Assembly (NCBI GenBank): GCA_001938485.1 | Contig: MQRK01208160.1 | Span: 1 to 58,067, forward strand | Direction of reading: 5' to 3' | Source of the DNA: Girardia tigrina | Lineage: Eukaryota | DNA: 58,067 bases | Shown: positions 6,131 through 41,965 of the stretch, piece by piece | Numbering within the stretch: the stretch's first letter is position 1 | How the letters are laid out: each line of letters opens with the position of its first letter | Made by a program: the position numbers and the translations under genes | The notes under the pieces: model-generated | Databases searched by the model: none | What the model was told of the DNA's origin: nothing | Seen by the model: only the letters and a program-made list of their open reading frames with translations

Positions 6131-6489
6131 GAAAAGTAGAACCTACCATCTCTTTGAAACTAAGGACTAAGTCTAATCATAGGCCAAATCTTCAAAAGAT
6201 ATTATTGGTGAAGATGAAGGTCCAAGAGAAATATACTACATACATGCTGGCGTCACGAAGAAAGTAAATAAAAATGATTCAGTTAGATATGAAGAGCAAT
6301 GCTTCACAAATTTTGCACAATTCAAAAATTCTTTTAGCATTTGGCGAATGGAAGAAGTTAACAATTGGATGAACGCAACATGTAACTGGCAAGCATTTCT
6401 GAAGGATTACATCTGTAAGCACTTTGTTGGTATGGAAATTCGTCTCAAACAAAACAAAACACCCGCCATAGCTAAAAAAAAATACTATT

Positions 6490-7079
6490 GGCAAAAAAGA
6501 AAGTGCGGTTGACCGACAAAAGCAAAGAAAGCCTTGATTGTAAAATGACGAAATGACATTCGATCAAGTTGGGGGTAGTGAAGGTCAGCGTCGATGGTAC
6601 AACCATTTGGAACCAGCTCGAAGTGAATCACGCCTTCGAAATTCCACAAAACACACAAAAATGCCTTCCTTGAGAAACAATCTCGTTTAGCTACCGGTTT
6701 TGCCATTTGTCCGGGGTCCAACCATTGATTTTGTTGGTCTGGATTACTGAAGTAAACACACTTTTCATCGCAAGTTACAATTTGACGGATGAAACGGTCA
6801 TCGCGCGGAATTTCAAGCAATATTTGACAAGTTTCGAAACGCTTTTCAGCTTGAATTTGTGTCAATTCATGAGGCACTTCTCGACATCGTCTATTGACCT
6901 TGCCAAGAGCGTGAAGGTGTCGTACAATGAATGTTTGAGGAATATCCAGTTCGGCCGACTATCTGCGAGTAGTTATTGACGGATTTGTCTCGACGGCCAC
7001 ACGAATTGCTCCGGAATCTGCGATGATAGGTCGGCCTAAACGTGCATTGTCTCCGAGGTCAATGTCGCCTTCGTTAAAC

Positions 7080-11988: not shown

Positions 11989-13116
11989 TTAGGTGTACAA
12001 GTATGAAATGCGGATTAAATTTTGAACAGAAATACGTTAAAAACAAAAGAACGATAAAAAAAGCTTTATTCAAAATATGCTCCATTACTAATGATACATT
12101 TGTCCCATCTATATCTCAAATTGTGGATACCTCGCCAGTAAAAGTCTTCCTTTTTTTCCATGAACCATTCATTGACCCATCTTTGTACATTTTCGTAAGA
12201 ATCAAAGCGCTGCTGAGCAAGTGCGTGACCCATCGATGCAATCAAATGGTAATCTGAAGGAGCCAAGTCTGGTGAATAAGCCGCATGAGGTAAAACTTCC
12301 CAATTCATTTCCTCCAACATAGCGTGAACCGGTTTTGATGTATGTGACGAAGCGTTGTCATGGAGAAGAATAACCTTGTGTTGCCTTTTGAGGTATTCAN
12401 NNNNNNNNNNNNNNNNNNNNNNNNNNNNNNNNNNNNNNNNNNNNNNNNNNNNNNNNNNNNNNNNNNNNNNNNNNNNNNNNNNNNNNNNNNNNNNNNNNNN
12501 NNNNNNNNNNNNNNNNNNNNNNNNNNNNNNNNNNNNNNNNNNNNNNNNNNNNNNNNNNNNNNNNNNNNNNNNNNNNNNNNNNNNNNNNNNNNNNNNNNNN
12601 NNNNNNNNNNNNNNNNNNNNNNNNNNNNNNNNNNNNNNNNNNNNNNNNNNNNNNNNNNNNNNNNNNNNNNNNNNNNNNNNNNNNNNNNNNNNNNNNNNNN
12701 NNNNNNNNNNNNNNNAATTCCACATCTTCGAAACCTTTTCGTGGTTTCCCATGGTCCTTATCTGCAACATCAAAGTCACCGCCATGGAAGCGCCGAAACC
12801 ATCGTTCACATGTATCTTGCGATGGGGCATATTCGCCATAAGCTTCTTGGAGTAATCGGTATGATTCAGCAGCAGTTTTCTTTAGATGGTAACCAAAAAT
12901 TAGTACTGTCCGCGAATGCTCCCTGCTTGGCATAAATTTGGACATCTAAAACACAGAAATACAACAATTATTAAAACGCTTTATCAATTTATGAGTTACG
13001 TATGAGACACTACATAATTACTCAATATTATGACATCATTGCCTAACCATTGACCTACTTTTTGCATTGTGCACAATCCGTTTTCTGAAATCCGCATTTC
13101 ATACTTGTACACCTAA
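11989..13116 (-). mobile_element. full-length Mos1-like (mauritiana-subfamily) mariner; middle hidden by a gap
   Basis: Perfect 28-bp TIRs TTAGGTGTACAAGTATGAAATGCGGATT with TA duplication. N-terminus MSKFMPSREHSRTVLIFGYHLKKTAAES; C-terminal HDNA...YSPDLAPSDY. Confidence 0.95.
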
Positions 13117-19302: not shown

Positions 19303-20504
19303 TTAAAGACTTTTCAGGAAAAAAATTGTTGAGTAAAATAAAACCTTCATTTATTAGAAGATGTATTTTAAAATTACTTCAAAATTTGTTAAAACAATTA
19401 ATTATCATGTTTTTTAATCTTATATAAATTTAAACCTTTCTAAGATTTTACGACAGTCAAAAATTCTAAAGAAAATATTAGAAAAAAACCAAACAATCAA
19501 TTGGGAAATGATCACAAGAATTATTATAAACATTTATTTATAAAAGAGATTTATTATCAAAACAGAAATTTACAAACAACTTACAAAATTGCTGCTGAAA
19601 TTTTCGATGGTCGAACTGACGGCGAGAGCTTGTGAAATAAAAAAAGGAAAGAAAAGTTAAAGAAAATGTACACAGAAAATAAAATTCTCAAAAAATTTTT
19701 ACAAGCAGAATTATTTAGGAAATTTAGAAAAGCTGGTATTGCTGTTTCTCAAAGCTGAATATAAAAATGTTTGAATATAAAAATGAATATACTCGAAAAA
19801 TAATTGACCGGATTCCAGACGAAACTAGAGGAAAAAATTTAGATATTCCGTGAAATTCGATTAATTTTTAATCGGAATTTCGCTTTTCTTGGTAAAAACT
19901 GGTAATGGGTGTAATCTCACAAACATTGAAGAAACATCCTATAAATACTGTAAGCCGTTTTAGGAACATATATTATTAGGTAATGGAAGTAATATTCCTA
20001 GATTATTCTAGGTTATTTTGACTAATTATGAGTTTAAAACATTAATTGTTGATTGTAGCAAAACATTAAATACTTAATAAATAAATTCCTAAATATATAA
20101 CTACTTTTAAAAAACAATTGGAACTGAATGAATATATTTACAAAATAATACTAAAGTTTCTATTTTTCAATGACAAAAATATTTCTTATATTACAAAAAA
20201 ATTAAAATTTTAAATTGTTTAAAAATATTAAATTTATTGAATATTATTTATTATTATTAAATTATTTTCATATTATTAAAAATTAATTTTTAGTTATTAA
20301 ATATATATTTTTATTACTTTAATTGTTTTATAAACTTAGTAAATCACGTGGATAATTAACATTACCTATTCTTTTGAATTATTTGAGAATTTTTTTTTAT
20401 TTTGATCAGATGGAGAATTTATTTTTTGATCTGAAAATGTTAAAAGAATAGGTTATAGTAAACCATCGGTGGTTAGTCATATTTGTGGGTTTAAAGTTTA
20501 TTAA

Positions 20505-21592
20505 AACGCCATTAAAAAATCCAATTTATTGCAATGTATTTTGGTGGATTTTCTATCATCTTCAGGCTGAATTGACAACAATTTCGCTGTCTTATATATA
20601 GCAAATTGATGATTATGCAAACATCTTGCATTATAACTAATTAAATAATTTCAACAAAGTGGAAGAGATAATAATGCCTAAAAGTCATTAATGTCTCACG
20701 AGTAACTCTTTCCCAATAATTTTTAAAATTACTGCACAATATTTTAAAATTAGTTGTTTTCACCTTCGATTTACAACCATTCATATGTACAGCAATATTA
20801 CTCCCACTACCCAATCGTCCGTGCTCCTGAATTCGTTTACAGAGATGACGAGACGTTTCTCCAATGTATGTGGCGTTGCACCCATCACATGAAAATTGAT
20901 AAACCGGATTGGAACATAAACTGAAAGGGGTACGAGATTTATTTGTGAACATACTTTGAATTTTGTAAGATTTAGAAATGATTTTTAAATTCAAATTTTT
21001 ACTATCGATTGATTTTAAAATAGACGATTTAAATTTTTTGTAATCTTCTGAATAAGGAACAATATCCAATATTAGAATTTTCATTAGATAATTTATCGGG
21101 TTTTAATTCGTCTTTACCTTCATGTTCTTTATTCATTAGTTTATCTATCGTCTCATTAGTAAGTTTCTCTAAAAACGATTTCGAATAGCCATTTTTCTGC
21201 AATAGTTCTGTTAGTTGATCTATGCTTGCATCTGCTATTTTATATGTTGATGATAGAGACCAAATTCTAAATAACAAACCTATTATCATACTTCCATTAT
21301 ATTTAGATTCACAGAAGCTTTTACTAGTAGTACTAGAAATCAACTAATTTTAGGGAAAGATTTACTTATGAGGCATTATTGATTAAATCACTTAATCCGT
21401 GCATTAATGTCCAAACAAGTCTCTCTTTCACTTTGTTGAAAATATTTAATTAGTTATTACGCAAGATGTTTGCATAATCATCAATTTGCTATTTATAAGA
21501 CAGCAAAATTGTTGTTAATTCAGCCTGAAGATTTGTGGAAAATCCACCGAAATATATTGCAATAAAATTCGATTTCTTTTTAATGGCGTTCT
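20505..21592 (-). mobile_element. 5'-truncated Penelope-like element with inverted pseudo-LTRs
   Basis: GIY-YIG ORF 20641-21084 (VYQFSCDGCNATYIGETSRHLCKRIQEH). Upstream linker ORF 21029-21343. 20505-20668 is the reverse complement of about 21422-21590. Confidence 0.9.
21519..21560 (+). ncRNA. minimal hammerhead-ribozyme-like motif in pLTR (degenerate inverted copy at about 20531-20570)
   Basis: CTGAAGA-TTT-GTGGA-AAA-TCCAC-C-GAAA-TATATT: core boxes, stem II and palindromic stem III. Stem I is very short. Confidence 0.55.
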
Positions 21593-22649
21593 TCATTTTA
21601 ATAAAAATTTGCCATTATTTTTAAATTTCTTATTAAAAATTAAATTATTATTATGAGGGGTTAGTTTTAAGTTTCGCTAAAATAGTTTATTATTTTTTTA
21701 ATTTGAAAATTTAAAAGAAATAAATTAACAATTACAATGTAGAGTAAAAATATGATAATAAATACTTATTTAAAATATGTTTACAGTAATAACAATTNNN
21801 NNNNNNNNNNNNNNNNNNNNNNNNNNNNNNNNNNNNNNNNNNNNNNNNNNNNNNNNNNNNNNNNNNNNNNNNTTTTAATAAAATGGTTATTGTAAATTTA
21901 AATTAATTAGTTTTATGATTAAGTTTCGTAAGAATGTAAAATTTGGTTACATTAAAAATTTGTAATTTTTTTGTAAAAAAATGTAAATTATTTAAGGTAA
22001 ATTTTTTGTAAAATTTTTGTAAAAAAATGTAAGATTATTTAAGATTTAAATTTTCTTATATTTTCAAAATTTAATCGAAAAATTTAATGAACTAATTTTG
22101 GGCGTAATAATTGAAGTAACAAGAAATTTGTTTAAGTATATGAATTGTGAATATTAAATAAATTTTTGTGGTGTTAAATTATGACTTTAGAATGTGATAA
22201 TAATGAAAGTGGCATAAACGATACTTACAATTATGATAAAACTAAAAAAAATGTTTACAAAAATGTTTATAAAAATCGATATATTTTAATAGTAAAATAA
22301 AAAAGAAAAGTTTATAAATAATAATTTTATAAACGGATTAAAAGTTATAATATTTTTCAGAAATTATTTTTTAAATAGTGTTTTTCGTAAATTAAAATTT
22401 TGTAGTTTTATGATAAAATTTATAAATATAATTTTAAAAAAAATTTTATAATTGTAAGGTAAATTTTAAAAACTAAATTGAGACAAAAATTTAATAAACG
22501 GCATTTAATAAATGAAATGATTAACGAGAAATTTATTTATATATGTATATAATTTTTTTTAATAAAGTTTTGCAATAATTATGACTTCTGAAATTTCGGA
22601 TACAGAAAATGGTATAAACGCTACTTACAACTGATATAATATCTTAATC

Positions 22650-22860
22650 GATCAATTAATATCCAAACAAGTTTTTCTTCCGTTTTGTTTAAATAATTGA
22701 ATTAGTTAATGCATGTCGCTTTTAGATTTGTCATTTTGATATGCTAATCACCACAATTGTTGATAATTAAATCTGAAGATGGTAAAAAATCCACCGAAAT
22801 ATATCACGTAAAGTTTTTTTAAAAAATATCTAAATTGTATTTTATAAAATGGCATTTGTA
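22650..22860 (+). mobile_element. solo Penelope pseudo-LTR with hammerhead-like core at 22773-22806
   Basis: INIQTSFSSVLFK ORF tail followed by CTGAAGATGGTAAAAAATCCACCGAAATATATC, homologous to 21405-21590. Confidence 0.65.
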
Positions 22861-23222
22861 ATTATCACAATTAAAATTTGTTAAATTTATTTAAAAGTTT
22901 TGTTTTCTTGATTAGAAAAGATTTTATAATACTAATGTACTGTAATATATAATAGCAAATCTTCTATCGAAAGCTTTCCCTAGGAAAAATAGGAGAAAAT
23001 TTCTATTTTTTCTTTTATAAATGTAAAATACACAATTTCTCTACAGAAATAAACGACTTGTGTTCCCATCAACAAGTGACTGTTGAATGCCATAGTTACT
23101 GTTCCCTTGTTTACACTGATTTTAGATGTCAATTTGTGTTTACTAAGACGGTTATTTAACTATTTGACATTCTTTACATTCTAGGTTATAAAGAGCTTAA
23201 TGAAACTCAAATAAATACTCAC

Positions 23223-24717
23223 CATTGAAACTATGTTTAATAAGATCCTCATAGAAATCTTTCCCGGGAATGTTGTTTAATGCTGCGATACATTTAAGTA
23301 AATTGAAAGGTTGACAGAGTTTCTTTTGAAATCTATTTAGTGTGTACGCCACAGCGTAAACGGCATCATAAACTGATTGAATTTTCGATTCATGTTTAAA
23401 AGTTTTTAATTTATTATACAAATTAAAATTAGAACATGGTTTCTTAGTTCTCTTGGATTCTCGTCGTGGTAGTCGAATTAATCTTTTCAAAGAATATATA
23501 TTAGGATTTTCAGTAAAATTCCGAAAATACGAATGGCGATATATCATTTTATCAATTGATCTTCGAACTATTCTTTTTGGAATATCAGATTTACAATCAA
23601 AGATTTCTTCCCAATATTCACTAAACCAAGGATTGTGAAGATTTTTGTAGCTTAGTGAACGATAATATGTAGTGAAATTTTTTATTTCTAGAGATTTTAC
23701 TTCAAATGTTAAAGCTCCATTTGCAACTTTACTGTTGTTTGTCACTGGACCATTTTCTTTTCCCCAGCCGTCACTGGCAATCCATAAAAAATGATTTGTC
23801 AAATTCATACTTGTCACGGCATTTAGTAAAAGTCTTGTGTGATCCAACCTTGTGAATAGAACGACGACTCTTGTCTTACTAAATTCTTGATAGAGAGTTT
23901 TAACAATAGCTAGTAAATCTGAATTAATAGGACTTTGTTTTATCATTTCTTTTGCTGCAATACAAACTCCTAATTTGCGACTCTCTTTCCAAAAAGCATC
24001 TATTCCACTATCGCCATAATCACCACTACTGCGAACCGTCGACACATATGTCCAATTATAGAAAGCTACCAAAGTAGCCATGGCTTTGGCTTGTTGTTGG
24101 TCTGACGGAAGAGTTCTGGCAAAAAATGGATGAGTCTTCTTCTCGCTTAGAAGAGCACTTGTAGATGCATAACTTATAAGTGGAATATGAAAGAGTTTTA
24201 ATAAATTAGCAACTAATATCGAAACAGAAGAATATGATCCCCCAATTACAGATCTGATCTTTTGCAATTTTTGAGTATGCCTGGAAGCTTCACTTCCATC
24301 TTTACAATAATAATCAGAAGCATCATTATTATCCGAAAGAGAAGACTTAATAAAATCCAATGATTGTTGAAGAGCATATGTATCTTTTGAGCATGTGTCT
24401 AAAATCCTAGCACCAATAGTAATATTTGGTAGAATATCCTGGCGACTGTTTATTTCTTTGATGGTAAAAATCATAGCTTCTAATCTTTGAATACCGCGAT
24501 CTGCATTAATTTTTTTACAAAACTCAGTTTCCGTATCATGAACGGGAAACAATCCCCCAAGAATAATATCCCCAGGATAAATTGCTGTAAGATATTTGTT
24601 TTCAATTTCAGAAACGGCAGATTTTACTACTACAAACCACAAATAATAAACAAAAATCGACAAGTTCAAATCAAAAATTCGAAAATACATTTGAAAATGG
24701 AAATTTATTAAATGCAA
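23223..24717 (-). CDS. metabotropic glutamate receptor (class C GPCR), first coding exon: signal peptide and most of the Venus-flytrap domain
   Basis: Uninterrupted reading frame of about 500 aa with GDIILGGLFPVH, GIQRLEAM, GARILDTC, GSYSSVSI, ISYASTS, FARTLPSD, GDYGDSG, WIASDGW, NPWFSEYWE, ESKIQSVYDAVYA. Donor TTCAATG|GTGAGT at 23223/23222. The true ATG may be the second Met (about 24687). Confidence 0.95.
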
Positions 24718-25067
24718 TTACAGAGTAAATACTGTTTCCTATCTTGATAAGAAACTTCTTCTAGATCTGTTATAATGTTAGGGAGAAATCTGTTGTAATT
24801 GGAGGAGAAATTGAACGAATTACTGATAAAAGATGAAGAGAAAGGCCTCTGACTTTTTATACTTATTTNNNNNNNNNNNNNNNNNNNNNNNNNNNNNNNN
24901 NNNNNNNNNNNNNNNNNNNNNNNNNNNNNNNNNNNNNNNNNNNNNNNNNNNNNNNNNNNNNNNNNNNNNNNNNNNNNNNNNNNNNNNNNNNNNNNNNNNN
25001 NNNNNNNNNNNNNNNNNNNNNNNNNNNNTTAAACATTTTTTAAAATGTACCAATTATATATATATAT

Positions 25068-25890
25068 ATAATGAAAAGAAAGGACATTTTTGAATATTAA
25101 ATTTATTTTCAATACATACGTGTTTCACCATTTCGGCATCTTCAATGCAATGAAATAAAGTGATTAATTACTATTTATATAGTTGAAAAACTATTACATC
25201 ATACGTCACAAAAACATGCTTTTTTCCTATTTTTAAAAAAAAGTACTTTAATGATATTTAAAATATTTAAAAAAACTTTAATATGATTAGATGAATCACC
25301 TTGTACGTTTAAGTATGGTTCATGATGCTTTATTAACAATAAATGCCGGAACTATTTCTCCAACAAATCAAAAACTCCTTTGTGTATTAAGGCAAATCTA
25401 GTTTATCAATTCAAATGTCACAAGTGCCTTGTACATTGGAGAGACAAGTCGTCATCTCTGCACTAGAATTGCTGAACATACTCAATCGAGTAGAAATAGT
25501 TCGATATTGAGCCATATTAAAAGATGTAAAGGTAATCTTATGGATTACAATAATGATTTTAAAGTGATTTTAAATAATTTTGAAAACAAATTATGAAAGG
25601 ATTATTGCCGAAGCATTGTTAATAAAGCATCATAAACCATGCTTAAACGTGCAAGGTGATTCATCTAATCAAATTAAAGTTTTTTAAATATTTTTAAATA
25701 TCATTAAAATACTTTTTTTTAAAAAGAATAAAAAGCATGTTTTTGAGACGTATGATGTAATAGTTTTTCAATTATATAAATAGTAATTAATCACTTTATT
25801 TCATTGCACTGAAGATACCGAAATGGTGAAACGTGTTTGTATTGCGAATAAATTTAATATTAAAAAATGGCCTTTCTTTTTATTTTTATT
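25068..25890 (+). mobile_element. truncated Penelope-like element with about 275-bp inverted pseudo-LTRs, inside (TA)n
   Basis: The core 25341-25687 reads NLVYQFKCHK..YIGETSRHLCTRIAEH..IIAEALLIKHHKPCLNVQG. 25068-25340 is the reverse complement of about 25614-25890. Confidence 0.9.
25804..25842 (+). ncRNA. minimal type-I hammerhead ribozyme motif (inverted copy at about 25112-25150)
   Basis: TGCA-CTGAAGA-T-ACC-GAAAT-GGT-GAAA-CGTGT-T-TGTA: stem I (TGCA/TGTA), both core boxes, stem II and short stem III. Confidence 0.7.
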
Positions 25891-25913
25891 AAAAATACCA
25901 TTATCAGTTCTAG

Positions 25914-25952
<39 letters not shown>

Positions 25953-26078
25953 NNNNNNNNNNNNNNNNNNNNNNNNNNNNNNNNNNNNNNNNNNNNNNNN
26001 NNTATATATATATATATATATATATCAATGTTTATATTTGATTTTAACTAATTAGAAATTTGAAAAATTAATTATTAT

Positions 26079-29000
26079 TGTAAGAGGATTCCATAATAAT
26101 AAACAAACGATTATAAAACAGAAAATATATATATATATGTGATTTAAAAATTACAGGAGTTGTTAATATTATTTAAACAAATTCAAGAGATTAATTTGAA
26201 TATTCTGGATACATTATTGTAATATATTTAGAATAATAAAGATAATATAAATATCATATAATTATTTATCCTTACACCCCCTTCTTTAAAAGGCTTCAGC
26301 CATTCGATATTTCTGTTTATTATTCGACTGTTTTATTCCGCATCTTCAAGCACCGATCATGTTCTTGACTAATGATTTCATAAGGGCCCTCATAACGATC
26401 CCAATACAAGTAATGCTTAAAATGTTGCCTAAAATGGAAGATAGCTAATAATTCTTTCCTGGTGATGCAATATCCTATCTCGTGTTTTGACATTGATTTC
26501 GATCCATATGCTATTACCTGTTCTTCTTTCTCATTTTTCTGCGACAGTACTGATCCTATTGTGTCAAAAGACGCGTCGGTGTCTAAAATAAATTATTTTT
26601 CAAAATCTGGATAACAATATCGGCACAGATGTTAATGCTTCCTTCAATTTATGAAAAACTACCGAATGGGCTTCTGACCAATGCATAACATCTTTTGAAC
26701 TTCCACACATTTCTTCTAATATTTTTGCCAATTTTGAGTAATTATTTATAAATTTACACATACCATTGGTGTATTCCATGGTGAAGAGCATTTCTCTATT
26801 ATCCCATGTCTTTCAAGATTACTGATCGCATCATCTATCTGTCGTTCCAGGTGGTTTGGCTGCCTCCGCGGTTTTTGTAGAATTGGTTTTCCTGATGTGT
26901 CAATTCTGTGTTTAACCAGTGTCGTCTTCCTTATATCCCATCTTCCAGTCATAAAAATATTTTTAAACTTGTTGATTCATTTATATAATTTATTTCCTTC
27001 CCTTAAATTTAACTTTTCTTTCGCATTCAGAAATTGCATTTTATCGGTATATTCCAACTTATTTGTATAAGGATTTAAGGCGCAAATTTCTCCATTAGTT
27101 TTAGTCCATAATTCCGATCCTTCATTATACTCTCTCTGCTCCATCTCAGTTCTAAACCAATCGCTCTGATCAATGTTATTCCGAAAATAATTGCCAGGAA
27201 TGCCGCTTTTGCCACATAAAATAATTGGTTAACTCTCTTATTTTTCCATACAACTATAATATTAAAAGTACCAACTATATCCATTCCGCTACCGTTCGCA
27301 CATATTACCGATGATATTGTCTTCTTATTTATTCTAATCTGCAACTTTTGTGCGATTTCCAAGTCAATAACATTGATTCGGGCACATGTGTCTAATAAAC
27401 AGTTATTTTCCATTCCTTCTATCCTAGCCTTAATACTGGGTCTATCATTAAATTCACTATAGTCTAATTTCTCATTCGGTGCAATCTCATATTTAACTAT
27501 CTTATACTCTTGAATTGAACTATCTATAAATTATTTGTTGTTTATACAGGTTTATTATAATCATTAAAACTACATACATTACAATTATTATATAATACAA
27601 TATGATATACATTACTATAATTAAAATTAAAATTATAATTACAATCATTAATATTACAAATAACCGGATCCAAAACATTCTTACTTTTTAATTTATGGCT
27701 CCTATTATCTCTTGACCTGATAGGGCCTCCGAATTTCCCGATATGTCTCGGTCACATCCGTCTATCTCCTCTATTTCGGCGATTCCGGCTATTAAAAACA
27801 TCACAATTTGAATGCAAACATTTATTTACAACACAAACAGATTCTTCACAACAATTTTCAGTGGTCATCTTTCTTTGATTAATATAGTTTTTGATTAAAT
27901 ATTTAAATATGAAAAAATCAATGAATGAAATATTACATTTTAATTTCTAATAATTTTATTGGATAAAAAGACATTATGTAATTTTTTAAATAAACATTAA
28001 TTTTTAAAAATATTAAATTTAATAAGTTAAAATCGTTTACTGAAAATATTATTAAAATTCATAATTAACAAACTTTAATTAATTAGTACTTTAATTTAAT
28101 ATCATTAAATTAATTTCATTAGATTCAAATAATTAATCAAATAAAATATCAATCCCATCTGGGTAGGAGAGTCACAAATCTAAACAGCATACAAACAACA
28201 AACTTACAACATTCACAATTATTTCTCACACCGGCAACATTCGATTTATACCGGTTCAATTCTTAACCGATCGGATCTCGATTCATCTGCTGGCCTTATT
28301 GTTTGAAACATTGGTACCATAAATGTCATTGTCCCTTACAATTTGCGCATTTCAGATATGGACGCTCTCTCCGAATATGTCCTTTGGCAAGGCATCTGTA
28401 GAACCCACTTGACGTTTTCGGGACATTCACGTCTCATATGAGCAATTTTTCTACAAATGAAACATTCAATCACCTTACTCGCTGACGTCTGGAATCTCTA
28501 TTGGTTTCTTTGATCATAATTTTCATTTCGTTTTATTAATTCCGGTCGGGACTCCCTTGTTTGCTGGAAACGGTTTGGTTTCCCGAAATTTGATTTTTCT
28601 CGCAACACATTTGCAAAAGTCTTTTTCTGTTGCAATAACGCAATCTCGTTGGACTGTACTTCAGCCTTGATGTGCTCCGATTTTTCGATTACCATCTTAA
28701 TGGAATCCGGAACTTTCGCTTCTTGCATAAAAATTTGCGTCCTGATTGACACATCCTCGACACAGTGGGTGAGGAAATAGGTCATCAATTCCTATTTGTT
28801 CCACTTGTGTAACAGTACTCTGTCCACCATTTTTTCAATTTTGTTGAAAAATACTGTCGGTTTCCTTCCTGTATGTTATCAATTCGTTGAGATCCTGGAT
28901 TAGGTACGATGGTCGTTTGAAAGCCTTTCTCAATCGATCCTTGAAATCCGTGATCTTGCTATCCACTGTTTTGTACGTGGCTAACATATCTCGGTCCATG

Positions 29001-29342
29001 AAAGCTTTAGCGATTGTCGCTTGAATAGCCTCGTTGATCTGAGCAACTTTAAAGAATCGCTGGCAATCAGCTTTAAATTCTTCTATGTCCTGTGACCATT
29101 TATAAACCTTCGGAGTCTGATTTCCAATGACACTGGCCGTGGTCGGCATGCAAGAGGATTCCATAATAATTAACAAACGATTATAAAACAGAAAATATAT
29201 ATTTGTGATTTAAAAATTACACGAGTTGTTTATATTATTTAAACAAATTCAAGAGATTAATTTGAATATTCTGGATCCATTATTGTAATATATTTAGTAT
29301 AATAAAGATAATATAAATATCATATAATTATTTATCCTTACA
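26079..29342 (-). mobile_element. internally deleted gypsy LTR retrotransposon with both LTRs
   Basis: LTRs 26079-26276 and 29149-29342 (TG...CA), TSD ATTAT on both sides, PBS-like TGCCGACCACGG, PPT TTTAAAGAAGGGG. Gag remnant with CFICRKIAHMRREC knuckle, protease LLDTC, RT start SSPWNTP fused to RNase H ILDTDAS, integrase tail YEGPYEI. Confidence 0.92.
27790..28230 (-). mobile_element. solo LTR (TG...TA family) nested in the gypsy element
   Basis: Minus strand TGTGAGAAAT...GTTTTTAATA flanked by a perfect CCGGC duplication. Homologous to 42665-43503. Confidence 0.85.
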
Positions 29343-29842
29343 ATTATAATAAATATTATCCATTGTTTTCAAAAATTAGATGAAACTTAGAAATATACAA
29401 AGTATTAATCAAGAAAGAATGTCGAATAGTGAAGGCGGTTTGAATAATTGTTGTAATGACAATTATGCTTGTGATATCAATAAATTTTGGAAAAATCATA
29501 TTAATGTTAATAATAATTGTGAGAAGTGGTTGCAACCTCAATATCAGGATTCATTTTTTTAACACCAAAATTTATTTATATAACAATTCGCATATTTAAA
29601 ACAAATTTTCTGTTAATTTAATTATCTCGACCCAAATTAATCTATTAAATTCTCTTCGATTTAATTTTTTTAATAGTTGTTTTATTATATAATTTTTAAT
29701 TTTAAAATATTGAATAATCATATTAACATAAAAATATTTTACCCTTTAAATTAAAAAAATAATAAATTATTCAGAAGAGATAAAAATTTAAATTAACCCT
29801 TCATAATAATAATAATAATAATTTTTATCATTATTATTATTA

Positions 29843-30593
29843 CTAGCGCGCTCGGCCCGCTTCGCGGCCCTCTCTTGCCGGGGGTTCAATTTTTTTATAT
29901 TATAAAAGCCCAAGTCACTCACTGCCTGCCTCACTGCCTCACTAACGCTGTAAGGTNNNNNNNNNNNNNNNNNNNNNNNNNNNNNNNNNNNNNNNNNNNN
30001 NNNNNNNNNNNNNNNNNNNNNNNNNNNNNNNNNNNNNNNNNNNNNNNNNNNNNNNNNNNNNNNNNNNNNNNNNNNNNNNNNNNNNNNNNNNNNNNNNNNN
30101 NNNNNNNNNNNNNNNNNNNNNNNNNNNNNNNNNNNNNNNNNNNNNNNNNNNNNNNNNNNNNNNNNNNNNNNNNNNNNNNNNNNNNNNNNNNNNNNNNNNN
30201 NNNNNNNNNNNNNNNNNNNNNNNNNNNNNNNNNNNNNNNNNNNNNNNNNNNNNNNNNNNNNNNNNNNNNNNNNNNNNNNNNNNNNNNNNNNNNNNNNNNN
30301 NNNNNNNNNNNNNNNNNNNNNNNNNNNNNNNNNNNNNNNNNNNNNNNNNNNNNNNNNNNNNNNNNNNNNNNNNNNNNNNNNNNNNNNNNNNNNNNNNNNN
30401 NNNNNNNNNNNNNNNNNNNNNNNNNNNNNNNNATGCATCCATCATGTTAACGTATTGTATCCATCATGTCAACATATTTCATTTATCATGTTAACAAATT
30501 GCATTCTTAATGTCAACGTAATGCACAGTTGATTATTTTCAGTTGATTATTTCGTCAGCGTTAGTGAAGCAGTGAGTGACTTGGGCTTTTATA

Positions 30594-30594
<1 letters not shown>
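29843..30594 (-). mobile_element. non-autonomous Helitron (with an opposite-orientation 5' end inside, and a gap)
   Basis: Reverse complement of the 3' hairpin plus CTAG at 29843 and of the TTATAAAAGCCCAAGTCACTCACTG 5' end at about 30570-30594. Same family as 34482-34840. Confidence 0.7.
30434..30521. repeat. 22-bp minisatellite (4 visible units, probably continuing into the gap)
   Basis: TGCATCCATCATGTTAACGTAT / TGTATCCATCATGTCAACATAT / TTCATTTATCATGTTAACAAAT / TGCATTCTTAATGTCAACGTAA. Confidence 0.85.
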
Positions 30595-30626
<32 letters not shown>

Positions 30627-31350
30627 TTAAGTTATTTAAGACACTTTCCTTTTTTTAGTTTACACAATCATTATTCTATCGAAATTTCATGTACTTATAT
30701 ATAATCGAAATTACTTAAAAACATAAATTAGTTAAACAAAATAGAAAAAATAATTTAAACAAAAATGTCTTCAATCTAAAATTATATTATGCATCACAAT
30801 TTTTAACAAAATTATTTTCCTCAATCTCCTTTTTTATTTCTATGAACTTATTTAACTTAACGTTATTTATGATAATAAGTAATAAAATTTTGTTTATTAG
30901 AAATTTTAATAAATATTGTCGTAATATTATTTAATATTATTTTTCTTGAATTTCTCAAATAATTTATACATAAAATAATCAATAATATGAAAAACAATTC
31001 TCTAAAAAATGTAAATTCATTCTGACAAATATTTTTTTTTAATTTAGATTTTTAATATTTTTATTGATTACAAATTTAGTGATTCTTTCAAGAAAAATAA
31101 AATGAAAATATAAATTTATAAATATTTTATAAATGAAAATATAAATATTAAAGTAATTTTTTTATAAGATATTTAAGTTTACAATAAAATGTTTATAAAT
31201 AATAATTAGTATTTTAATAATATAATTGATAATTAACACAATGAGATGAAACAAGATTTTTTGTACATAATTACATTGTATATAATTGCATTTAAAAAAA
31301 GATAATTCAGATTGAATAATATAAAGTACAGTACTCATTGAGTTATTTGA

Positions 31351-32453
31351 ATGGAAAATCAAAATGAGCATATTCGTCATGTTATGTTGCATTATTTTCG
31401 CAAAGGGAAAACTGCTGTGCAAGCTCATAAGAAGATATGTTTTGTATATTGTAGTGACTCCTTAAAACTTCGACAGTGTCAATACTGGATTTCTAAATTT
31501 CGTTCTGAAAAATTCCATCTGAAAGATGCACCACGCTCCGGTCGACCAGTTGAAGTTGATGACGACAAAATAACAGTACTGATCAAATCTAATCCATATA
31601 TGACGACAAGGGAAATTGCAGAGACTCTGGAAATATCAAAATCAAGTGTTTGAAGTCATTTAAAGAAACTTGGATTCGTCAGTAAACTCGATATATGGTT
31701 ACCACATGAACTAAAAGAAATTCATTTGGTGAAACGTATAGACATTTGCGATTCCCTTTTGAGGCGAGAACAAAGTGATCCATTTTTGACGCGCTTGATT
31801 ACGGGTGACGAAAAATGGATTGTTTACAACAATGTGGAACGCCGACGATCAAGAACAAAACATGGTGAGCCTGCCAAAACGATGCCTAAAGCAGAAATTC
31901 ACCAAAAGAAGGTTATGCTTTCCGTCTGGTGGGATTTTAAAGGAATTGTGTTTTTTGAACTCCTTCCTAGGAATGAAACCATCAATTCAGACAGATATTG
32001 TGGTCAGCTGGAGAAATTGGCTCATTCAATTCAACAGGAACGTCCTGAATTGGCAAATCGAAAAGGAGTTGTAATTCAGCATGATAACGCAAGACCGCAT
32101 ACAAGTTTGACCACTCTCCAGAAACTCTTATCACTGGGTTGGGAGGTTTTACCGCAATCACCGTATTCTCCAGACTTGGTCCCATCGGATTTTCACTTAT
32201 GTAGATCACTGCAGAATTCCTTAAGCAGAAAAACATTCACCAGTAATGATGACATCAAATTGTTCCCAGACGGCTTTTTTGCTGACAAAGGCAAAGGTTT
32301 TACTGAATCAGGAATAATGAAGCTACCGGAAAGGTGGAAGAACGTGATTGAAAATAATGGACAGTATATCGTGTAAAAATATTTGTGCATCCATGTCATT
32401 TTTTGATAATAAATATTTTAGTAAAAAACGCAATGACTTTTTGGCCAACCCAA
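31351..32453 (+). mobile_element. mariner (mellifera-like); transposase 31351-32376 with a single in-frame stop; 3' TIR present
   Basis: MENQNEHIRHVMLHYFRKGK, WLPHEL, TGDEKW, HDNARPH, YSPDLVPSDF all in one frame with TGA at 31651-31653. TIR ...CTTTTTGGCCAACCCAA|TA. No matching 5' TIR seen. Confidence 0.95.
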
Positions 32454-36890: not shown

Positions 36891-37702
36891 AAGTGATATG
36901 TCTTTCGGCCAAACATGACATCACCGTTCCGGCTTTCAGAACCCCACGAACTGTTGAAGAAGTTTCAATAGTTGCGGAAGAAATTGCTAAATCGTTGGGA
37001 ACCAGAAATGTGGTAGTTAAAGTTCAGGTACTAGCAAAAGTCTGTCGAGGGTGCGCATTCCTATGGGCCCGAATTCGCCTAATCCTTATCTTCGAAATTT
37101 AGATGAAACATAATAAATTAAAAAACACTTACAAAATGAATCATAATCTGAACGATTTTGAAAATTTTTCGATTCAAGCCTTGCACAAATAGAAAATCAA
37201 GTTTGGTACTTTGTATTAACTATATTTAATCATTTTCTATTATAGCAATCAACACAATGTTTTGTTGTCCTTTTGTATAATTGAATCTTGATTCAGAAAA
37301 CTCTTTCACGTAAACTTTCATTCTTTCAAAAACCAATAATATTTTTATGTTTGAAATATATATTTAGCATAAGCGAAAATAATAAATTAATAACTGAATA
37401 TTACAAAAAACTATAAAAAATTCTTCTTTCATCTGTCGAAATATTTTTTTTACTGTAGGATGAGTTTTTCTTTCTAAATTATTCATAGAAATCTCAGGAA
37501 AATCATTTTTTCTAACAGCTTCTTTCATAAAATAGAGAGTTTTTATTGGAGCTGAAAAAGATTCAAATTATTTTCCAATGTGATTTACTTTCACGAAACC
37601 TCAATTGTAAAAAAAGTGTAAAAAGTATTTCATGGAATTGCAACAATCTACAAAGCAGTAGATATATAAAAATCGTTTATTTCTTTTTAATAAAAATTTT
37701 TC

Positions 37703-37738
<36 letters not shown>

Positions 37739-38258
37739 NNNNNNNNNNNNNNNNNNNNNNNNNNNNNNNNNNNNNNNNNNNNNNNNNNNNNNNNNNNNNN
37801 NNNNNNNNNNNNNNNNNNNNNNNNNNNNNNNNNNNNNNNNNNNNNNNNNNNNNNNNNNNNNNNNNNNNNNNNNNNNNNNNNNNNNNNNNNNNNNNNNNNN
37901 NNNNNNNNNNNNNNNNNNNNNNNNNNNNNNNNNNNNNNNNNNNNNNNNNNNNNNNNNNNNNNNNNNNNNNNNNNNNNNNNNNNNNNNNNNNNNNNNNNNN
38001 NNNNNNNNNNNNNNNNNNNNNNNNNNNNNNNNNNNNNNNNNNNNNNNNNNNNNNNNNNNNNNNNNNNNNNNNNNNNNNNNNNNNNNNNNNNNNNNNNNNN
38101 NNNNNNNNNNNNNNNNNNNNNNNNNNNNNNNNNNNNNNNNNNNNNNNNNNNNNNNNNNNNNNNNNNNNNNNNNNNNNNNNNNNNNNNNNNNNNNNNNNNN
38201 NNNNNNNNNNNNNNNNNNNNNNNNNNNNNNNNNNNNNNNNNNNNNNNNNNNNNNNNNN

Positions 38259-39177
38259 TGGCGTAGTGACAAGAACCAAGATCTGGCCAGAAGATGAAGT
38301 GACCAGCTGGGTATTTCTCATTCAGATAAGGAAGCAAACGCTTCGTTAAGCACTCGGAGATATAAATATCCGAATTATAAACTACAGATTTCTATTTCCT
38401 GATGTACAGGTTTGAAATGCCTCGTCAGGAAACAGTTGCCCAAACAAAAACTTTTACTGTGAATTTCTCTTGAAATTTAAGGCGAATATTATCAGGTACA
38501 TCACCGAACTTATTTTGGTCCACATAATAACCCGATGTCATTGCTCCGGTGAGTGTAAAATACAACTCATCATCAAGTACAAAGTCGGTTTTGGTCTTTT
38601 CCACAACAATTTTAGCGAGATTTTGCAACCTGGCTTTCTGGCGAATAATCTGTGTCGGAGTAACCTTTGGGGCTTCTTTCCCCTTTTGAAACTCTATGTT
38701 ATTAGTGTTGAGCATCTTATGCACGAAAGACTTTGAAACATTCATTTCTCTACCTAACTTTCTCACACTTTGTCCAACAGTCAAAGTTGCACGCTGCAGA
38801 AGTCTCTTCCTTTTGTCTGACGTCATTTACCAGGTTTCCTTCCACTTCCTACTTTTCTTTCAATGCTGCCGGTGTTCTCATAGCGTTGTATTATTGCATA
38901 TATACCTCTTCTGGAAAAATGAATGCCAGTAAACTTTGTCACAGTCTCACTTTTACTGTGCGTTTTGAAAGAAATGATTATGTCTTCATGTCGTTTTGAA
39001 ATCATTATAATTGTCTCTAAAATAAAACATATTAAACCAAAAATTTTAAATACCTGCTTTACTATTTCTAACCTATCAAAACAAATATTTAAATTCCAAA
39101 TTTACGAAATTAAATAATATTACATTAAAAAGTTATGATGGTTTTAAAACTTGTGCACTTTTTTAGTGGACACACCT
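38259..39177 (-). mobile_element. DD37E/TRT-like Tc1-superfamily transposon, frameshifted; 3' part in the gap
   Basis: ERKVGSGRKP, FVLDDELYF, KVFVWATVS, LLPYLNEKY..FIFWPDLGSCHYA. Terminus-like TAAGGTGTGTCCACTAAAAAAGTGCAC. Confidence 0.8.
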
Positions 39178-40164: not shown

Positions 40165-40972
40165 ATATAATGAAAATAAAGGCCATTTTTGAATATTAAA
40201 TTTATTATGAAATTTAAATGTCACAAGTGTGAATCCTTGTACATTGGAGAGACAAGTCGTCATCTCTGCACTAGAATTGCTGAACATACTCAATCGAGTA
40301 GAAATAGTTCGATATTGAGCCATATTAAAAGATGTAAAGGTAATATTATGGATTATAATAAAAATCGGTAGTAGCGACGGGCGGTGTGAACAAAGGGCAG
40401 GGACGTAATCAGAGCAAGCTAGTTACTTGCGCTTACTAGGAATTCCTCGTTCAAGTGGGATAATTTCAATCCACTATTCCTGACACGACAGGGATTCAGC
40501 AGGTTACCCGACCATTTCTAGCTAGGAATAAAACTCGCTGGTACTGCCATTGTAGTGTGCGTGCGGCCCCGGACATCTAAGGACATCACAGGCCTGTTAT
40601 TGCTCCATTTCATTTAGTTAAACGCTATTTATTCCTCTAAGAAGTCAGCATTTGCGATTTAACACAAATGTACTATTTAGCAGGTGAGAGTCTCGTTCGT
40701 TAACGATATTAACCAGACAAATCGCTCCACCAACTAAGAACGGCCATGCACCACCACCCACCGAATCAAGAAAGAGCTATCAATCTGTCAATCCTCACAG
40801 TGTCCGGATCGGGTGAGATTTCCCGTGAGCATACTCAATCGAGTAGAAATAGTTCTATATTGAGCCATATTAAAAGATGTAAAGGTAATCTTATGGATTA
40901 CAATAAAGATTTTAAAGTGATTTTAAATAATTTTGACACAAATTATGAAAGAATAATTGCCGAAGCATTGTT
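40165..40972 (+). mobile_element. Penelope-like GIY-YIG fragment (same family as 25068-25890), interrupted by an 18S fragment
   Basis: FKCHKCESLYIGETSRHLCTRIAEH...YERIIAEALL, near-identical to 25410-25620. Short inverted tail at 40165-40207 next to (TA)n. Confidence 0.9.
40363..40827 (-). pseudogene. 18S rRNA fragment (3' half, roughly the V7-V8 region), non-functional copy
   Basis: Reverse complement contains universal 18S motifs GTGGTGCATGGCCGTTCTTAGTTGGTGG, GCAATAACAGG, AACGAGGAATTCCTAGTA, CACACCGCCCGTCGCTACTACCGATT. Several substitutions at normally invariant sites. Confidence 0.95.
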
Positions 40973-41965
40973 AATTATAAATCGTTCTCGATCGATAATG
41001 AAAAATAGTCGTTTGTCCGAGCTTTTCTTTTTTTATTTTTTTTATTACACAAGTTCAGTGAACTATCAGCAGTAGTTAATAATGTCTTGTCAATAAAGAA
41101 TTATATATATATATATATATACAAACCTATATACTAAAGATAAATAAGACGACGCGTTTCTAGGTAACAATCCTAAAATCAGGTCAATCCACATCATTTA
41201 TTAAACTAACACAGTAATGGACTTCAAAATAATTTCTAAAAACATTTTACTATTATTTTTACTATTACTAAATTATTTTTTTGATTTTTCTCAAAAATTA
41301 AATGAGGACTTATTAATTTTTTTTAAATCTAACATTTGAACAAAAATTCTAAAAAATACGTAAAACATAAAAAATAGATATTGTTTACAAAACTTTAAAA
41401 AGTTTAAAATTATTTTTTTTAAAACCAACCAAAACTAAATAATTATATAAAACAAAAAAGGTAAGACTAATTAAAATTGATATATTTTAAGAGGAAACTA
41501 ATCAATAAAAGTTTTAAATTGAGAATTTTAAAATAAGTAATAAAAAAAATAGTCTCAAATTAAATAGCCTATTTTTATTTATATTGGTATTTATTTATTT
41601 ATTTATTGTCTGATTCATGTTTATGTATTTATTATTTATTTATTTTTTTAGTTATGTTTATTATATTATGTATGTTAATTATTTATCTATCCCTATTATA
41701 TTAATACCTAACAGCATAAGGTTGTTAGGATATTATATTAAATTTTAAATTTATTGATTTTAAAATAATCACTATTTATTTATTTATGAAATGAATTATT
41801 TACCTGATATATCAATGCTTGTTATTCTATGCTGAAAGAAAACGATTCTTTATTGAGAAGACATTATTAACTACTGCTGATAGTTCACTGAACTTGTGTA
41901 ATAAAAAAATAAAAACTCGGACAACCGACTATTTTTTATTATCGAGCGAGAACGAATTATAATTA
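40972..41965. mobile_element. unclassified element with about 125-bp terminal inverted repeats
   Basis: 40972-41101 is the reverse complement of about 41845-41965 (e.g. TTACACAAGTTCAGTGAACTATCAGCAGTAGTTAATAATGTCTT). No coding interior. Confidence 0.75.

Follow-up and report, generated by a model that had tools for sequence, protein, structure and literature searches.

The window, a 58,067-nucleotide stretch of Girardia tigrina DNA (contig MQRK01208160.1), holds the first coding exon of a metabotropic glutamate receptor (mGluR) and, beside it, a cassette of two inverted arms from a Penelope-like element. The outer end of the cassette lies 380 nt from the mGluR ATG, an interval that includes a masked stretch. 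The features of the locus are listed below, with pLTR sequences making up the arms.

23223..24690, minus strand: first coding exon of the mGluR gene (best match mGluR3, E=9e-110), with the ATG at 24690
25052..25069, no strand: (TA)n at the left end, the likely target, which masks any target-site duplication
25070..25340, minus strand: left inverted arm, a 5'-truncated pLTR copy with the family's short 3' end and no tail, in mGluR sense
25107..25155, minus strand: left hammerhead motif, damaged (C3U at 25145; stem III ACACGU; residue 17 is A at 25117)
25171..25181, minus strand: TATA-like box of the left arm, with an initiator-like TCATT about 30 nt downstream and a predicted start at 25151, facing mGluR
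25330..25345, no strand: head-to-head junction of two 5'-truncated copies, with about 3 bases in common, unseen in the other copies examined
25338..25687, plus strand: 3' end of the Penelope ORF, what is left of a GIY-YIG endonuclease, with a frame shift and an internal stop (ORF stop at 25685-25687)
25615..25884, plus strand: right arm, the pLTR part of the sense copy
25773..25783, plus strand: TATA-like box of the right arm, with an initiator-like A at 25803 within the 5' strand of hammerhead stem I
25799..25847, plus strand: right hammerhead motif, core intact (C3 at 25809), with G10.1A and stem III ACGUGU, antisense to mGluR
25885..25918, plus strand: 34-bp tail, at the right end only, with the start of the family ORF inside it (ATG changed to ATA at 25895-25897)
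25919..25952, no strand: (TA)n at the right end

The initial annotation described a mini-element with inverted arms around a GIY-YIG piece, and this arrangement was recovered: the arms at 25070-25340 (minus) and 25615-25884 (plus) are 91.5% identical over 272 columns and are separated by a 274-bp spacer. Both arms contain the ORF end, the TATA-like box, a three-pair stem II with GAAA, and AATAAA, as had been stated. CTGAAGA was found in the right arm only; the left arm, also said to carry it, reads TTGAAGA owing to C3U at 25145. The plus-strand copy is one piece of about 25338-25918, running through the endonuclease ORF end, the stop, an AT-rich stretch, the TATA-like box, the hammerhead and the tail. 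The element had been drawn too short, with the tail extending it to 25918. The spacer remnant matches PF01541 at E=0.0022 and 18.7 bits, below the cut-off of 22.6. No palindrome is present at the junction, and a target-site duplication, if there is one, is hidden by the (TA)n on either side. The pairing of a TATA-like box with an initiator-like motif in the pLTR has been described before (PMC3846280). AATAAA was considered as a poly(A) signal and dropped: the DNA is very AT-rich, and the ends found 32-66 nt after the motif border on (TA)n.

A genome search with the arm returned 1700 first-look candidates, the best 39 others being 92-96% alike. Longer copies encode a reverse transcriptase (RT, PF00078) with a C-terminal GIY-YIG domain that exceeds the PF01541 cut-off; one of them (L065) scored E=5e-13 for PF00078 and E=5e-8 for PF01541. 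These domains bear out the Penelope-like identity first proposed for the cassette. By the criteria of PMC8557442, the linker before the endonuclease keeps the CCHH motif (CxxC..H..H), visible in all 3 long copies aligned, and is without CX2-5CxxC or CxCX5C. On its sequence, the family is an endonuclease-bearing (EN+) Penelope-like element, likely of the Penelope/Poseidon clade, a placement based on the linker motif and not on a tree. A tree of 79 arms supported 4 of its 76 branches and gave no resolution. Neither the host nor this family was found in the papers searched.

The 3' ends of the family fall mostly at two fixed places. Among 76 distinct matches, 29 had the short end, 35 the tail end and 12 another end; 30 ended at the equivalent of 25918 and 19 at that of 25884. 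Two preferred ends thus lie 34 bp apart, and (TA)n followed in 20 of 29 short ends and 18 of 35 tail ends. The tail is the start of the family ORF. Diverging pairs of copies filled 24 rows, of which 14 combined a short and a tail end like the cassette (a count that includes the cassette itself and one locus twice), 2 were tail with tail, 3 other with tail, and 5 could not be assigned. An 11-12-bp duplication flanks another copy (L042), and the cassette's own flanks are (TA)n.

The junction itself was not found elsewhere. None of 33 other distinct inversion junctions, drawn from 98 partly overlapping loci, matched it, and their breakpoints were scattered along the element. Likewise, none of the 39 other top spacer matches crossed the junction. 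These samples are the best-scoring 40 per search and not the whole family. The proposal that the cassette is a mini-element replicating as a unit is not sustained, with all 33 other junctions differing from its own. The 5' ends of arms recur near the equivalent of 25611-25615, where the cassette's left arm starts. Two junctions were each common to two contigs (L132/L133, L142/L164, L149 region). An RT stop or the re-copying of composite elements is a possible source of these recurrent starts and shared junctions.

In our preferred reading, an abundant EN+ Penelope-like element, likely Penelope/Poseidon, left one decayed, 5'-truncated insertion here, which likely arose from two RT events at one (TA)n and likely has no effect on mGluR. 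We assign this reading a probability of about 0.85. The element protein would nick both strands of AT-rich DNA. One strand would then be extended from the tail start site, giving a 580-nt copy that spans the hammerhead and reaches the endonuclease region, and the other from the short start site, giving a copy of 271 nt. Both cDNAs would stall, and their ends would finally be joined through a few common bases. The hammerhead would be a passenger of the pLTR, and RNA of the active family would be cleaved as a dimer through the palindromic stem III. Cleavage and extension of both strands, with two RT start sites bounding the tail, are described for anole Poseidon (PMC11167929). The self-priming model of Arkhipova (PMC3846280) offers an alternative route to the same layout and was considered, but the cassette junction is without a palindrome.

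Differences between the arms bear on a second explanation, in which a single (TA)n tract received two independent insertions, from different subfamilies and oriented head to head. Two sites of the subfamily type separate the arms, residue 17 (A/U) and 25862 (C/A), and the arms mismatch at 11 of the 140 bases compared, a count toward the upper end of what other pairs show (0-13); residue 17 agrees in 18 of 19 other pair rows. Two insertions would account for these differences, but no TA remnant is present at the junction and the asymmetry of short and tail ends is the norm in the family. Furthermore, one template can supply both arm types: in copy L061, the upstream pLTR is A-type and the downstream one U-type within the same stretch. 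We therefore regard two independent insertions as very unlikely. The differences at residue 17 and 25862 could reflect two templates, two insertions or later change. Compared with the majority of 77 other arms, the two arms are 96.3% and 94.1% identical (median 96.6%, range 92.1-99.2%), and the left arm is more diverged than typical copies. This divergence is ordinary decay, and conservation was not seen.

The layout of the insertion has precedents. In Adineta vaga, Pen2/Pen2a likewise place an inverted 5'-truncated copy beside a sense copy (PMC3846280; scheme in PMC8557442, Fig. 2). Elements of this EN+ type are also described as having a tail of 30-40 bp at only one end, an ORF start in the pLTR or tail, TATA and initiator-like motifs within the pLTR, microhomology junctions and AT-rich targets. 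Unlike Pen2/Pen2a as these accounts present them, the cassette is without a full ORF and without a junction palindrome, and its target-site duplication is masked by (TA)n. In Anolis carolinensis, the Poseidon element PAc shows the same fixed 3' ends bounding a tail, AT-rich cut sites and extension of both strands (Frangieh et al. 2024, PMC11167929). The PAc ORF begins inside the hammerhead, whereas that of the cassette's family begins 57 nt past the predicted cut. Non-LTR retrozymes and MITE-like elements (bioRxiv 10.64898/2026.07.22.740005) are likewise short, non-coding, hammerhead-bearing and pLTR-derived. However, retrozymes are portrayed there as tandem direct repeats that replicate as units, whereas the cassette is an inverted arrangement with a junction that no other examined copy shares. 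The layout is already set out in PMC3846280 and PMC8557442. The locus is ordinary transposon debris.

At the family level, the hammerhead motif is well preserved. At least 1004 exact copies of the 40-mer hammerhead are present in the genome, and all 11 core letters are kept in 67 of 77 arms. The family-majority stem III is the palindrome ACGCGT, present in 81 of 90 motif rows, a count in which overlapping loci are included, the filters required C..G, and loci L102-L131 were chosen for ACGCGT. From its sequence alone, we judge the family motif to be a sound minimal type-I hammerhead with a palindromic stem III, in agreement with the claim made from the cassette. A pattern made of the core and ACGCGT, with N7 not A, matched 194 times, compared with 3 for its reversed control; most of the 194 belong to a second family, with other stems that also pair. 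The stems of the other families, left unspecified in the pattern, were GAC/GTC and TTG/CAA for stem I and GAGAT/ATCTC for stem II. No two-sided stem II change was found within the cassette's own family, where only G10.1A occurs, in 4 of 77 arms. The proposed check of family-wide conservation thus came out in favor of the core, and stem II covariation appears across families and not within this one. At least two further minimal-hammerhead families are present in the genome (L102-L131 and flanks L030, L111, L126), one with ACGCGT and a GAC/GTC stem I, the other with ACATGT (4 of 4) and a TTG/CAA stem I.

Hammerheads cleave after an NUH triplet. Residue 17 among the 1004 exact copies was U in 550, A in 377, C in 76 and G in 1, which fits the NUH rule, a fit that rests on just two lineage-founding changes. 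The rarity of G17 in decayed copies is not itself a sign of selection, as about 1 is expected from decay (estimated from few N7 variants). The signal at residue 17 is limited to U, A and C each having founded lineages and G not.

Both motifs in the cassette are altered. Their stem III letters are as originally given, GAAACGTGTT in the right arm and GAAACACGTA in the left, and the homodimer of this stem is weaker in both, at -3.1 kcal/mol (right) and -2.3 kcal/mol (left), against -7.5 kcal/mol for the family. In the right motif, residue 17 is U at 25837 and the predicted cut is 25837|25838. C3-to-T occurs in 2 of 77 other arms and G10.1A in 4 of 77. In anole Poseidon PAc, C3G or G8C mutants lose cleavage (PMC11167929). 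From C3U and the broken palindrome, the left copy is predicted to be dead; the inactivity of C3U is inferred, the C3 mutant assayed in that report being C3G. The right copy, antisense to mGluR, is predicted to be weakened. The notion of a working hammerhead in each arm is not supported, both copies being mutated. The proposed Rfam covariance search returned no hammerhead at E up to 10 in 20000-31000 and none in the window at gathering score. Monomers folded no better than shuffles (z of 0.23 for the right arm, -0.73 for the left and 0.64 for a typical copy), which is expected for the minimal class, yet gives no support for the motif.

These copies compare closely with the minimal type-I hammerheads of metazoan Penelope-like elements (Cervera and de la Pena 2014, PMC4209133), which have the same CUGANGA and GAAA core, the same extra nucleotide between 9 and 10.1 (here U after A9) and a palindromic 15.2-16.2 region. 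Opposite-strand hammerhead pairs 100-700 bp apart are already reported in that paper, and so is low activity in vitro. Stem II here has 3 pairs with G10.1-U11.1, against the 7-8 pairs in Schistosoma and the conserved G10.1-C11.1 given there. Also unlike the hammerheads described in that source, stem I here can be extended to about 10 pairs and both cassette copies are mutated.

The 5' ends of family copies allowed the predicted cut to be compared with the genomic record. Among copies running into the ORF, 7 of 25 distinct 5' ends fell within 3 nt of the predicted cut (+26 to +31, with the first base after the cut at +29), against 1.0 expected if ends were uniform (binomial p 4e-5; 4e-5 to 1.4e-4 with simulated junctions and the same aligner). 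Ends were taken from 60 loci and stretches plus a third set, in the range from 60 nt before to 90 nt after C3. Copies with the same flank were merged by eye. Ends at contig edges or N gaps were dropped, as were internal deletions, rows that could not be assigned and two spurious alignments. The cut-site window was drawn after the first sample, which supplied 6 of the 7 ends; the second sample placed 1 of 10 new ends at the cut and the third 0 of 1 in range (1 of 11 together). Three further ends lay at the initiator (-8 to -5) and five at +50 to +56. The latter pile (p about 0.006-0.01) has no ribozyme explanation and reveals an uneven background. Of 17 short arms that stop short of the ORF, 1 begins at the cut, and that one is an internal deletion. 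The lack of a pile in this small sample argues against a plain RT stall.

These counts suggest that about one quarter of cDNAs running from the ORF to the upstream pLTR may stop at the predicted cut (7/25), beside a smaller group at the predicted start. We give slightly less than even odds to this being a genomic record of cleavage in vivo. The role of Penelope hammerheads has been described as unclear (PMC8557442). For PAc, PMC11167929 reports no RNA reads ending at the cut and finds cleavage dispensable in vitro, whereas in the present family the predicted cut is where some genomic copies start. The open literature searched, as listings, abstracts and selected papers, showed no account of genomic 5' ends coinciding with the cut of a Penelope-like hammerhead. 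A large, fairly young family with 5' ends that can be counted against a predicted cut makes the role of the hammerhead testable from the genome alone, and the family offers three natural residue-17 variants for assay.

The remaining question is the neighboring mGluR gene. Contigs of 4/4 sequencing runs leave the genome at the splice donor 23222, indicating a spliced exon. In 22900-24868, contigs of 4/4 runs span the exon and end at 24730, 24730, 24754 and 24786 without a loose 5' end. Such contigs cannot show a transcription start and have no bearing on read-through, and 11 of the 15 sequencing runs were guessed to be RNA. In 25029-25614, family pieces were plentiful in 4/4 runs; none among 32 pieces listed of 686 bridged the junction, and repeats fragment contigs. 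A search of the readable part of the window for the following mGluR exon found none. The ligand-binding region of the receptor lies in one 1.47-kb coding exon (23197-24717, minus strand), with a basic insert at about residues 385-430.

The initial annotation suggested that read-through mGluR RNA would contain a long hairpin and a ribozyme-like motif; in its strongest form, this would mean a working ribozyme that regulates the message. The hairpin stands in silico, with a very stable -383 kcal/mol over 890 nt, and the cassette is close to the ATG. As the arms are on opposite strands, one RNA holds just one hammerhead in sense, and for mGluR this is the left one, the other being antisense. With C3U, a weak homodimer helix and its burial inside the hairpin, where it would pair with the antisense right arm, the left motif is unlikely to act as a ribozyme for mGluR even with read-through. 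A ribozyme role in the mGluR message is thus unlikely on these predictions, and we consider regulation by hairpin and working ribozyme together extremely improbable.

Co-option of the left arm as an alternative mGluR promoter is a further possibility; transcription would then begin at 25151, 461 nt upstream of the ATG, and C3U would protect the capped RNA against self-cleavage. The TATA and initiator-like motifs of the left arm are intact and face mGluR, family 5' ends fall at the initiator in 3 of 25-26 cases (p about 0.02-0.04, uncorrected), and the 3' pLTR of Drosophila Penelope can reportedly drive genes downstream of it (PMC2377424). Such an RNA would nevertheless have 5 upstream ATGs in the readable part of its leader. 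The left arm is also more diverged than typical copies, not less, and its C3-to-T change recurs in 2 of 77 others. We consider this promoter role improbable and prefer an insertion likely without effect on mGluR. A bacterial promoter scan was set aside as irrelevant here.

Other elements were noted in the window. A second, chimeric fragment of the same Penelope family lies at 40169-40975. In order, it shows (TA)n, a 38-bp inverted pLTR end, part of the endonuclease (40211-40361), 18S rRNA sequence in antisense (Rfam SSU_rRNA_eukarya at 40411-40841, E=1e-98) and an overlapping endonuclease piece (40826-40975). This chimera likely arose by an RT template switch onto rRNA and back. The mGluR intron holds, at 20641-21102 (minus strand), a GIY-YIG fragment that belongs to another Penelope-like family and shares 38% identity with the first copy of the alignment. 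A decayed Ty3/Gypsy-type LTR retroelement, in pieces and with protease and RNase H matches, lies immediately upstream of the cassette at about 26300-29200 (minus strand). Additionally, ORF pieces at 6485-6958, 12066-12945, 31654-32376 and 37687-38826 resemble Tc1/mariner transposases, as judged by eye.
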